From positions 627 through 64,626 of the forward strand of contig JACRPW010000044.1 of assembly GCA_016223005.1 (NCBI GenBank): 64,000 nucleotides of DNA, written 5' to 3'. Below, piece after piece: positions 14,761-40,134 of this stretch. The translations under genes were made by a program, and so were the position numbers. The notes under the pieces are model-generated. The model was not told the origin of the DNA. It searched no databases and was given only the letters and a program-made list of their open reading frames with translations. The stretch is from Deltaproteobacteria bacterium (GTDB taxonomy: Bacteria; Desulfobacterota; GWC2-55-46; UBA9637; GWC2-42-11). Every line of letters begins with the position of its first letter. Within the stretch, counting starts at the first letter, position 1.

Positions 14761-15735
14761 TTAACCTTTATTCCTTACAGCCAAAAGCATCCTCTCAATA
14801 AGTTCTGTAAAATCTATGCCTGCACACCTTGCTGCCTTTGGCAGTAAACTCAGTTCTGTTAGACCAGGGACTGTGTTAAGTTCAAGAACATAGGGGTCAT
14901 TTTTTTTGTCAAGGCATACATCAACCCTTGCTGCGCCGCAGCACCCAAGGGCATTGTATGCATTAATGGCAGCCTCTTTTACCCTGCATTCAACCCCTTT
15001 CTCCAATGGTGCAGGCGCGATGTAATCTGTCATCCCTTTTGTATATTTTGACCTATAGTCATATAAACCTTTTTTGGGTTTTATCTCTACTACAGGCAAA
15101 GGTTCTCCGCTTAATATCCCTACAGTAACCTCCCTGCCCTGAATAAACCTTTCCAGGACAATCTTGTTATCAAACCTGAAGGCTTTTTTAATTGCCTTTT
15201 GCAAATCCTTTTTATCCTTTACAACAGTAAGCCCTATTGTTGAACCCTGCCTTGCAGGTTTTACTACAAGAGGAAATTTGTAATTTGTAGTTCGTAATTC
15301 GTAATTCTTAATTCCTAATTCGTAATTTCTTATAACCTGCCAATCAGGTGTTGGTATACCATGAAACCTAAAAATCTCCTTTGCTGCTGCCTTGTCAAAT
15401 GCCACTCCACTTGCAAGCACACCTGACCCTGTATATGGTATCCCCATTATCTCAAGGAGCCCCTGTATTGTGCCGTCTTCTCCATATTTGCCGTGTAGGG
15501 CGATAAATGCAAGTTTAATCTTCTTTTTCTCAATTACCTTTGCTGTATCCCTGCCTGCATCCACTGCAACCACTTTATAACCTTTACCCTTAAGCGCCTT
15601 ATATACAGCCATGCCTGAGCAGAGGGATACCTCCCTTTCAGATGACATCCCGCCCATCAAAACCCCTATTTTAAGTTTTTTTAAATTAGTAATTCGTAAT
15701 TCGTAATTCGTAATTTTTTTACTCCTCTCCGACAA
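14761..15735 (-). CDS. ddl: D-alanine--D-alanine ligase. It has a TTG start with a GAGGAGG SD. Heptamer-repeat peptides sit at the N-terminus (ITNYELRITN) and internally (NYELGIKNYELRTTNYKF).
   Basis: ATP-grasp Ddl motifs (KIGVLMGGMSSEREVSL, GSGVLASGVAFDK). The aattcgt-type repeats lie at 15684-15718 and 15275-15330. Confidence 0.92.
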   Translation of the reverse strand: MSERSKKITNYELRITNLKKLKIGVLMGGMSSEREVSLCSGMAVYKALKGKGYKVVAVDAGRDTAKVIEKKKIKLAFIALHGKYGEDGTIQGLLEIMGIPYTGSGVLASGVAFDKAAAKEIFRFHGIPTPDWQVIRNYELGIKNYELRTTNYKFPLVVKPARQGSTIGLTVVKDKKDLQKAIKKAFRFDNKIVLERFIQGREVTVGILSGEPLPVVEIKPKKGLYDYRSKYTKGMTDYIAPAPLEKGVECRVKEAAINAYNALGCCGAARVDVCLDKKNDPYVLELNTVPGLTELSLLPKAARCAGIDFTELIERMLLAVRNKG

Positions 15736-16660
15736 TCTTTATCTCCTCCTCAAGCAATACCCCTTTTTCCTTTAATACCCTATCCTTAATAATATTTATA
15801 AGTAACAGCACATCCTTTGTCTTTGCATCCCCAAGATTTACAATATAATTTGCGTGGACATCTGATACCATTGCATCACCTATCCTTGCACCCTTTAAAC
15901 CAACCTCATCTATGAGTTTGCCTGCGCAAAGCCCTTCAGGGTTTTTAAATATTGAGCCTGCATTCGGCAGGCGAACAGACTGGGTCTTTTCCCTCCTTTT
16001 AATAAATTCGTTCATTTGTTTTTCTATTATAGATACATCCCCTTTTTTAAATTTAAGATGAACCCTTGTAATTATATAATCCGGCTTAAGACTGCACGAC
16101 CTGTATGAAAAATGCAGTTCATCTCTTCTTATAAATATTTTACTGCCTCTTGTATCAGTCACATCAATCCCTGCCACAAGACTGCCTACATCAGCGCCGT
16201 ATGCACCTGCATTCATTGCCACTACCCCACCAATGGTTCCTGGTATTTGGACTGCAAATTCAAGCCCTGAAAGTCCCCTTTTACTACATTCATTCACAAT
16301 CTTTGCAAGTTTAACCCCTGCACCTGCGACCACATAGTCATCAGCCTGCCAGTATAAATCTTTAAATCCATCTGCGAGGTTTATTACAACACCCCTTATG
16401 CCGCCATCTCGGACAACAAGGTTTGTTCCAGCGCCAAGTAAAAAAACAGGGAAATCCTTTACATATGCAAACTTAAGTATCTCCTGAAGGTCATCTTCAT
16501 CCAGAGGAAACGCCATAACATCCGTAGGACCGCCTATTTTCATGGATGTCCACTCTTTCATCAGGACATCAAAGAGGATGCGTCCTTTGAAGTTGCAAGT
16601 TGCAAGCCTGCCCCTGTAAGCAGTAAACAGGGGTTGCAAGTTGCAAGTCTTATCTTTCAC
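15719..16660 (-). CDS. murB: UDP-N-acetylenolpyruvoylglucosamine reductase. The start is either GTG 16660 with a strong SD (which translates a repeat/hairpin element) or ATG 16561.
   Basis: FAD-binding MurB blocks (GGPTD, LLGAGTNLVV) and dcw position. Confidence 0.9.
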   Translation of the reverse strand: MKDKTCNLQPLFTAYRGRLATCNFKGRILFDVLMKEWTSMKIGGPTDVMAFPLDEDDLQEILKFAYVKDFPVFLLGAGTNLVVRDGGIRGVVINLADGFKDLYWQADDYVVAGAGVKLAKIVNECSKRGLSGLEFAVQIPGTIGGVVAMNAGAYGADVGSLVAGIDVTDTRGSKIFIRRDELHFSYRSCSLKPDYIITRVHLKFKKGDVSIIEKQMNEFIKRREKTQSVRLPNAGSIFKNPEGLCAGKLIDEVGLKGARIGDAMVSDVHANYIVNLGDAKTKDVLLLINIIKDRVLKEKGVLLEEEIKIVGEE

Positions 16661-38688: not shown

Positions 38689-40134
38689 ATGAAGGCAATA
38701 ATCCTTGCAGGTGGAAGCGGGACAAGGCTTTGGCCCTTGTCCAGAAGGAACTATCCCAAACAGTTTCTAAAACTAAACGGCGATAAGTCCCTTCTTCAGC
38801 AGACAGTGGAAAGATTGTCAGGTGCAGTTCAACTTGAGGACATTATCGTAATGACGAACAGTAATTATAAATTCCATGTGCTGTCAGACCTTCAGGCTCT
38901 TAACTCTAAACTCTCAACTCTGAACTCTAATATCATCCTTGAACCAGCGGCAAGAAATACTGCGCCTGCTATTGCGCTAGGGGTTAAATATTGTCTTGAA
39001 AGACTCGGCTGTGATTATGATGAAATAATATTCCTGTCGCCTTCAGACCACATCATCAAACCCAATGACAAGTTCACAGAATACCTTGCATCTGCAAAGG
39101 CTATTGCAGAGAAAGGCTATATAGTAACATTTGGGATAAAACCGGATAGACCTGAGACAGGATATGGATATATAAAAGTCAGAAGTCAGGAGCCTGCCCC
39201 CGCAGGCTTCAATCGGGGGTCAGAAGTCAGAAGTCAGGAATTCTTGAGAGTTGAAAGGTTTGTGGAAAAACCAGATGTAGAGACTGCAAGACGTTATTTA
39301 GATGAAGGGAATTACTACTGGAATTCAGGCATGTTTGCATTCAGTATAGGCACAATGATTAAGGAATTTGAAAGACATGCACCGGCAATAAGTAATATGC
39401 TAACTAAAAGTTTTGACGAGATGCTGTCAAACTTTAAGGATATGCCTGATGTATCCATAGACTACGCTGTAGCAGAAAAATCAAAGGATGTTGTAACAGT
39501 CCCCCTTGATTTATACTGGAATGACATTGGCTCATGGGATTCATTGTGTGATGTTATGGATAAGGATGAAGATGGAAATATCAAAAAGGGTGATGTTATT
39601 GCTATAGACACAAAAAATACCCTGATAATAGGAAATAAAAGGCTTATATCAACCATTGGACTTAATGACTGTCTTATAGTTGAAACTGACGATGCTGTGC
39701 TTATAGCAAGAAAAGGAGAGACTCAAAAGGTTAAAGATATAGTTAGAAAGTTAAAGGCAGATGGCAGAAAAGAGGCAGAAGAACATGTTACCACATATAG
39801 GCCATGGGGCAGTTATACAGTGCTTGAAGAGGGGGAGCGGTATAAGATAAAAAGGATTGTTGTTTACCCAAATAAAAAGTTAAGCCTGCAGATGCACCAT
39901 CACAGGAGCGAACACTGGGTTGTTGTGAAAGGAACTGCACGGGTGACAGTTGGCGATATAAAAAGGACTATCCATGAAAACGAATCTGCATATGTCCCTA
40001 AATCAACTGTCCATAGACTTGAAAACCCCGGCAAAGTGCCTCTAGAGATAATAGAGGTTCAAAATGGTGAATATGTTGGAGAAGATGATATTGTGAGGGT
40101 TGATGATGATTATGGGAGACAAAAACTTACTTGA
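38689..40134 (+). CDS. manC: Mannose-1-phosphate guanylyltransferase / mannose-6-phosphate isomerase (ManC type, cupin C-terminus). It carries an in-frame insertion of a heptamer/mini-palindrome element.
   Basis: MKAIILAGGSGTRLWPLSR N-terminus and C-terminal cupin. The ORF listed from 38632 is an upstream extension overlapping the PMM gene. Confidence 0.88.
   Translation: MKAIILAGGSGTRLWPLSRRNYPKQFLKLNGDKSLLQQTVERLSGAVQLEDIIVMTNSNYKFHVLSDLQALNSKLSTLNSNIILEPAARNTAPAIALGVKYCLERLGCDYDEIIFLSPSDHIIKPNDKFTEYLASAKAIAEKGYIVTFGIKPDRPETGYGYIKVRSQEPAPAGFNRGSEVRSQEFLRVERFVEKPDVETARRYLDEGNYYWNSGMFAFSIGTMIKEFERHAPAISNMLTKSFDEMLSNFKDMPDVSIDYAVAEKSKDVVTVPLDLYWNDIGSWDSLCDVMDKDEDGNIKKGDVIAIDTKNTLIIGNKRLISTIGLNDCLIVETDDAVLIARKGETQKVKDIVRKLKADGRKEAEEHVTTYRPWGSYTVLEEGERYKIKRIVVYPNKKLSLQMHHHRSEHWVVVKGTARVTVGDIKRTIHENESAYVPKSTVHRLENPGKVPLEIIEVQNGEYVGEDDIVRVDDDYGRQKLT

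Follow-up and report, generated by a model that had tools for sequence, protein, structure and literature searches.

Elements of the IS200/IS605 family, such as IS608 and ISDra2, carry two different subterminal hairpins and are at least 100 nt long even when they are non-autonomous. The small dispersed repeats of Nostoc punctiforme and its relatives (SDR1-8), described by Elhai and colleagues in 2008 (Genome Res 18:1484), are reportedly 21-27 nt long, non-coding and precisely present or absent at a given site, and are said to be nested in other repeats and to sit within tandem heptamer repeats. SDR-like repeats have been stated to be absent outside the Nostocaceae (PMC5861425). REPs are tetranucleotide-tagged stem-loops that form GTAG and CGTC super-families (PMC3733652), and REPs and REPINs are mobilised by RAYT Y1 transposases (PMC3733652, PMC3116915, PMC6006769). 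According to Di Nocera et al. (PMC3733652), REPs may lie inside genes or be nested within further palindromes, and their stems can contain G-T pairs. Among the Rickettsia palindromic elements (RPEs), the inserts of RPE-1 are described as longer palindromic insertions, and RPE ends carry CGTC (PMC3733652). Tandem heptamer arrays of the unit TAACTGA are known from the Beggiatoaceae (PMC4679880).

The stretch of DNA analysed here, 64 kb of contig JACRPW010000044.1 (hereafter the window; G+C 40.7%), contains two hairpin cores, CCTGCCCCTGTAAGCAGTAAACAGGGG in murB and CCTGCCCCCGCAGGCTTCAATCGGGGG in manC, both on the plus strand (Table 1). The murB core is flanked on each side by two TTGCAAG units, and the manC core by GTCAGAA GTCAGGA G on the left and TCAGAA GTCAGAA GTCAGGA on the right. 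This agrees with an earlier note on this DNA, which had described a GC-rich hairpin ending in GGGG at both loci, bracketed by direct repeats of a locus-specific heptamer; the text is as quoted there, and each core measures exactly 27 nt. The motif CCTGCCCC-N(8-25)-GGGG has two matches in the window against 0.07 expected from shuffled sequence, both cores fitting CCTGCCCC-N15-GGGG, and a stricter core consensus with up to three mismatches again finds just two matches against 0.00 expected. No further or degenerate core was found in the window beyond these two, nor in the orthologue loci L001-L009. Each core folds into a GC-rich stem of 6-7 bp, CCCCTGT/ACAGGGG in murB and CCCCCG/CGGGGG in manC. 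The two are identical at 19 of 27 positions and differ by a compensatory stem change (CCCCTG...CAGGGG versus CCCCCG...CGGGGG).

Table 1. Window coordinates of the two cores, the heptamer arrays around them and their host genes.
Feature	Positions	Strand	Remarks
27-nt core, murB copy (CCTG tag and hairpin)	16607..16633	+	Minus-strand reading PLFTAYRGR in MurB
Left half of pre-existing TTGCAAG array, 2 units	16593..16606	+	Arrays uninterrupted in L007, L008 and L009 orthologues
Right half of TTGCAAG array, 2 units	16634..16647	+	Same orthologue comparison
27-nt core, manC copy (CCTG tag and hairpin)	39193..39219	+	PAPAGFNRG within ManC
Left part of pre-existing GTCAGRA array, 2 units and G of the third	39178..39192	+	Five uninterrupted units in L005
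Right part of GTCAGRA array, TCAGAA and 2 units	39220..39239	+	L005 comparison
murB CDS, UDP-N-acetylmuramate dehydrogenase	15719..16660	-	Core in N-terminal tail
manC CDS, mannose-1-phosphate guanylyltransferase / mannose-6-phosphate isomerase	38689..40134	+	Core in length-variable loop

The earlier note had suggested looking for empty sites in orthologous genes, and these exist for both loci (murB in L007, L008 and L009; manC in L005). In L007 (GCA_016213025.1), whose 54 nt upstream of murB are identical to those of the window and which has the same GTG start, the 5' end of the gene reads ...GAC CAGCAA CTTGCAA CTTGTAA CTTGTAA CTTC, four uninterrupted units. The coding strand of the window reads CTTGCAA CTTGCAA, then the 27 nt, then CTTGCAA CTTGCAA CTTC. 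The array of L008 likewise has four uninterrupted units, while that of L009 has three and a degenerate one, its total length unchanged. At the protein level, the MurB homologues P0127, P0129, P0128 and P0135 read KT(C/Y)NLQLA(T/A)(C/F)NFKGR, without the nine residues; P0127 and P0129 start MKDKTCNLQLA, as the window protein does up to the insert. The manC array of L005 consists of five unbroken units (GTCAGAA GTCAGAA GTCAAAA GTCAAAA GTCAAAA); that of the window has five units too, with 27 nt lying between the G and the TCAGAA of the third. The closest ManC homologue (L002, 79%) is without any array at the site. Across these lineages, whose proteins share 55-59% (MurB) and about 74% (ManC) sequence identity with those of the window, the net difference between filled and empty sites is exactly 27 nt in both genes, and the number of heptamer units gained is zero. 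The junction is ambiguous by 1 nt, a G, such that the insert can be read either as CCTG...GGGG at G^T or as GCCTG...GGG at A^G. Since uninterrupted orthologue arrays have the same number of units, the heptamers were there beforehand and 27 nt were cleanly inserted among them. The heptamers are the landing site and lie outside the element itself. No case was found of near-identical strains that differ in the presence of a copy, and recent mobility is therefore only a possibility.

The earlier note had proposed a tiny insertion element with target duplication, and one half of this proposal is supported: the core is a discrete inserted unit and belongs to a dispersed family, but the duplication falls, the unit number being the same in empty sites. 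A miniature insertion sequence that generated a 7- or 14-nt target duplication, seen today as the flanking heptamer pairs, would account for the direct repetition of the same heptamer on each side of both cores. It is nevertheless very improbable, given that full arrays are already present at the empty sites (four units at murB in L007 and L008, five at manC in L005), that 27+7 or 27+14 nt would break the reading frame, that other copies have from zero to several heptamer units per side and most have none, and that the window holds some 35 heptamer arrays without a core. A constant flank of 7 or 14 nt, which the note had raised, is likewise not seen; the length of heptamer sequence on each side varies across copies. 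The approximately 35 period-7 tandem arrays of the window lie both within and between genes, so the heptamer flanks are not special to the two core loci. The flanks of both cores are ordinary STRR-like arrays, comparable to cyanobacterial STRR and to those of the Beggiatoaceae in being abundant, head-to-tail 7-nt units found in and between genes. We consider it probable that a dispersed mini-element entered, at each locus, an array already in place and that no target sequence was duplicated.

Both insertions leave their host genes, which belong to essential pathways, open. The element is 27 nt long, a multiple of three, and is free of stop codons in the frames used, so each insertion adds nine residues. 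Through the murB core, the minus strand reads MKDKTCNLQ-PLFTAYRGR-LATCNFKGR, and through the manC core the plus strand reads KVRSQE-PAPAGFNRG-SEVRSQEF, bearing out the earlier statement that the manC copy is translated in frame. The murB copy had been assigned to the 5' end or leader of the gene. The 5' end of the coding sequence is correct and the leader is not, since there are no in-frame start codons between the core and the conserved FKGRILFDV block. The additions sit in tolerant places, the N-terminal tail of MurB and, in ManC, a loop whose length differs between homologues. Long ORFs at low-GC loci contain at least 20 more in-frame copies, which mostly read PAPxGxxxG or SLPLQxxSRG. A module acting at the peptide level was considered as well and rejected, since in murB it is the opposite strand that is translated and the resulting peptide is unrelated.

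The source of the window is a metagenome-assembled genome (MAG), and repeats can be mis-assembled, which raises the question of an assembly or binning artefact, or else of a chance palindrome. The product of the murB ORF has an identical counterpart at NCBI, from a MAG that bears the label 'Deltaproteobacteria bacterium', and the murB insertion is found, identical in sequence, in an independent Logan assembly (L001). The reading frames are preserved, the chance expectation is at most 0.07, and hundreds of independent assemblies contain members of the 27-mer family, among them the genome of an isolate, Lysobacter yangpyeongensis. An origin by artefact or chance is therefore of negligible probability.

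A loose hairpin pattern gave 80 matches on viral contigs, mostly random GC-rich hairpins, among which were four clear relatives (in L057 and L087). These match the window copies at up to 25 of 27 positions, and AAG stands immediately before each of them. From these four and the two window copies the consensus pattern AGCCTGCCCCYGNANGNNNNNANCRGGGG was built, for which about one match per 596 Gb is expected by chance. Further copies, for which the earlier note had proposed a whole-genome search, number in the hundreds across assemblies: AGCCTGCCCCYGNANGNNNNNANCRGGGG matches at least 120 stretches of species-representative genomes, and the core pattern without AG matches at least 120 further stretches of metagenomes. 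Only two viral contigs, L057 and L087, match the core pattern without AG. The hosts among the matches listed include groundwater 'Deltaproteobacteria' MAGs, Thermodesulfobacteriota, Nitrospinota, Nitrospirota, Latescibacterota, Elusimicrobia/Endomicrobia, Ignavibacteria, Magnetococcales and Brocadiaceae, together with Beta- and Gammaproteobacteria, of which Thermomonas and the cultured isolate Lysobacter yangpyeongensis are examples. Carriers of the element include Latescibacterota OZ244847.1, OX638329.1 and OZ253501.1 and Lysobacter yangpyeongensis KACC 11407. No cyanobacterial record is among the approximately 240 matches listed. Plasmids contained no BLAST match to a 31-nt consensus, and no paper on the core sequence strings turned up in the literature.

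Two main types of core, CCTGCCCCCGAATGnTTnnATCGGGGG and CCTGCCCCTGCAGGCAGTAAGCAGGGG, were found. The murB core is two substitutions away from type CCTGCCCCTGCAGGCAGTAAGCAGGGG, and these form a compensatory change from C-G to T-A; the same holds for its comparison with CCTGCCCCTGCAAGCAGTAAGCAGGGG, present in Nitrospinota and other MAGs, to which it is 25/27 identical. Copies in L145 and in the viral-contig locus L087 differ from the manC core by two substitutions in 27 positions.

The element consists of a CCTG tag and a hairpin, whose 7-bp stem (CCCCYGN...NCRGGGG) is closed by an A/A pair and carries a loop of 7 nt. The six seed copies all had A at positions 12 and 20 and G at position 14, and the search pattern then fixed these three bases. 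Of 147 distinct cores, 72 have TA at stem positions 9-23, 64 have CG, 6 TG and 5 CA. At positions 11-21, unconstrained in the search, the bases are AT in 63, CG in 50, TG in 12, TA in 4, GT in 3 and GC in 2, with 13 non-pairs; this unconstrained position is thus paired in 134 of the 147. Judged by these counts, the 7-bp stem is maintained by covariation. A relaxed pattern applied to the fetched loci revealed variants such as GC(T/A)TG-TCCCC...GGGGA, in which the outermost stem pair covaries, so position 27 is part of the element. Mispairs on the CCTG strand are more often G-T than A-C (21 versus 8), an excess that is only suggestive but hints at folding of the CCTG strand and not of its complement. 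In a scan of 128 copies without flank constraint, the base at -1 of the core is G in 111 (87%) and the base at -2 is A in 75 (59%), while the 3' flank shows no conservation. More than 240 sampled copies, from unrelated contexts and phyla, share both the 5' start and the 3' end.

A hairpin with such properties might instead be a functional signal of the host, a REP-like RNA or DNA element serving mRNA stability, termination or protein binding and kept by selection. The compensatory stem changes and the excess of G-T over A-C pairs fit this idea, and for REPs with such stem properties a role at the RNA level has been argued (PMC3733652). Of the copies inside ORFs, 20 of 23 are in sense orientation. 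The two window copies, however, have opposite orientations with respect to transcription, and many copies lie in coding sequences or nested in repeats, surroundings in which regulation by the hairpin is difficult to imagine. Rfam finds only an SRP RNA and two tRNAs in the window, and no family for the cores. Selection for a signal would also leave unexplained how a constantly bounded unit came to split arrays that run unbroken in relatives. We regard this explanation as unlikely, although function and mobility can coexist.

The copies favour particular surroundings. Removal of the core restores the heptamer phase in about 6% of copies as opposed to 0.1-0.2% of random positions in the same loci, an enrichment of the heptamer context of about 30-70 fold. 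Some 20% of copies are nested in other small palindromes, with complementary arms on either side, as opposed to 0.5-2% of random positions, and this nested context is enriched about 10-40 fold. Most copies are without heptamer flanks. The arrays that host copies are built of GTCAGAA (the commonest), GGGGCAA, GGGTCAA, AGCCAGA or AATTACG. When judged by eye, the share of copies in heptamer arrays is higher. The sampled copies are mostly single, with one tandem pair (L145), a few inverted pairs and some self-nested cases. An origin from CRISPR repeats was considered and rejected, the pairs in L145 and L164, at 34- and 69-nt spacing, not being arrays.

These surroundings are slippage-prone, and copying during replication without any dedicated enzyme must be considered. 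Forks would stall in heptamer arrays or palindromes, and a template switch through 1-2 nt of microhomology (G or AG) would bring in the 27 nt. The preference for such arrays and palindromes is as expected from this scheme, as is the 1-nt G ambiguity at the junction. Template switching nonetheless predicts variable boundaries, whereas the more than 240 sampled copies have both ends in common, and the heptamers differ between loci, so they offer no homology to guide a switch. This route appears improbable. Taken together, the constant ends, the precise insertion relative to empty sites and the covarying hairpin argue for enzyme-catalysed insertion of a defined unit and against slippage, template switching or chance.

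We therefore return to the mini-element, and to how it might be moved. On this reading each locus holds one copy of a 27-nt non-coding element, inserted precisely into a tandem heptamer array that already lay in the gene. Copying would depend on an enzyme supplied in trans, which would recognise a folded single strand of the element and join it 3' of a G, often of AG. Insertion would take place at sites that readily become single-stranded, such as slipped heptamer arrays and the loops of other palindromes. The absence of duplication, the short 5' base(s), the apparent dependence on a one-strand fold and the single-strand-prone sites resemble what is known of Y1 HUH enzymes (IS200/IS605 TnpA, RAYT). 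By analogy, the enzyme could be of a class that handles hairpin DNA as the IS200/IS605 or REP-associated Y1 (HUH) enzymes do, an assignment that is possible and yet rather doubtful.

Searches around the copies bear on this assignment. Near 120 genome copies no protein family was enriched, the neighbours being only generic response regulators, ABC ATPases and oxidoreductases, and no Y1 transposase ORF was found in the 64-kb window. A phmmer search of the ORFs of 2.4 Mb of fetched DNA, with two IS200 and RAYT queries, gave two IS200/RAYT-like matches, 2 kb and 5.8 kb from a core. The nearer, in L290, is a Y1_Tnp by Pfam and the only clear Y1 transposase in the 2.4 Mb; it lies 2 kb from a CCTG core. 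Neither of the two RAYT-like ORFs adjoins the element. Of the two, the L290 ORF had its flanks examined, and they hold classical GTAG REPs in inverted orientation, starting TGTAGGGGAGGGG. The orientation of copies has no bias with respect to local GC skew (59:52), which counts against an IS608-like lagging-strand mechanism, since such a mechanism might predict one. The single hairpin, the failure to find an enzyme and the lack of strand bias weigh against simple membership of IS200/IS605 or RAYT.

Compared with IS200/IS605 elements, the CCTG element shares the lack of target duplication and a propagation that appears to depend on a one-strand hairpin. A short conserved sequence (G, often AG) lies 5' of it too, but this signal (G 87%, A 59%) falls far short of the 4-5 nt that IS608 or ISDra2 require as target. 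The element also differs in having one hairpin within 27 nt, with no TnpA nearby and no strand bias detected. With REPs, which measure 20-40 nt, it has in common that it is a short, dispersed, non-coding stem-loop with a conserved tetranucleotide at one end, that its sub-families differ by complementary stem changes, that G-T pairs occur in the stem and that some copies are intragenic or nested. Its tag, however, is CCTG (usually GCCTG) and not GTAG or CGTC, and in the DNA searched it is not associated with a RAYT, that of L290 having GTAG REPs. CCTG copies are mostly single and not inverted doublets, and are frequent in heptamer arrays. REPs are mostly extragenic, whereas both window cores and at least 20 others are intragenic; REP families are usually lineage-specific, whereas the CCTG element is near-identical across many phyla.

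By description, the likeness to SDRs is also close, the CCTG element being 27 nt long, non-coding, precisely present or absent (at murB and manC) and found in heptamer and nested contexts. Its hosts, by contrast, are Deltaproteobacteria-like, Nitrospinota, Nitrospirota, Latescibacterota and others, and its copies are commonly in frame inside protein-coding genes. Like RPEs, it is palindromic selfish DNA tolerated in frame in functional genes, to which it adds a peptide segment; unlike it, RPEs occur in Rickettsia alone and show no link with arrays of heptamers. The CCTG 27-mer is best placed among the very small palindromic dispersed repeats, and may represent a distinct CCTG super-family. Tentatively, and somewhat short of an even chance, we propose a third REP-like super-family, tagged by CCTG: a single-hairpin unit spread across phyla, inserted in trans 3' of a G without duplication and routinely adding nine-residue peptides to housekeeping proteins.

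If this is true, 27 nt made up of a 4-nt tag and one hairpin suffice for DNA to spread within genomes and between phyla, and the CCTG unit is among the smallest mobile DNAs on record, in the size class of the SDRs (21-27 nt). The cross-phylum spread of so small a unit and its heptamer landing sites are the points of interest here. Inserts of this kind inflate and diversify the protein sequences of MAGs with PAPAGxKQG-type segments, and may lead both alignments and gene prediction astray. For the search for the enzyme, the family provides a handle, through comparison of genomes with and without the element.

Tandem heptamer arrays, a so far unexplained feature of some genomes, would under the same supposition be a landing pad for such elements. 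This would explain why differing mini-inserts are found in one ManC loop across lineages. At the same position of the manC array, L330 carries a degraded type-II copy; in other lineages the loop is occupied by other mini-inserts, an unrelated 42-nt GC-rich insert in L003 and, in L331, a different hairpin nested in a third element.

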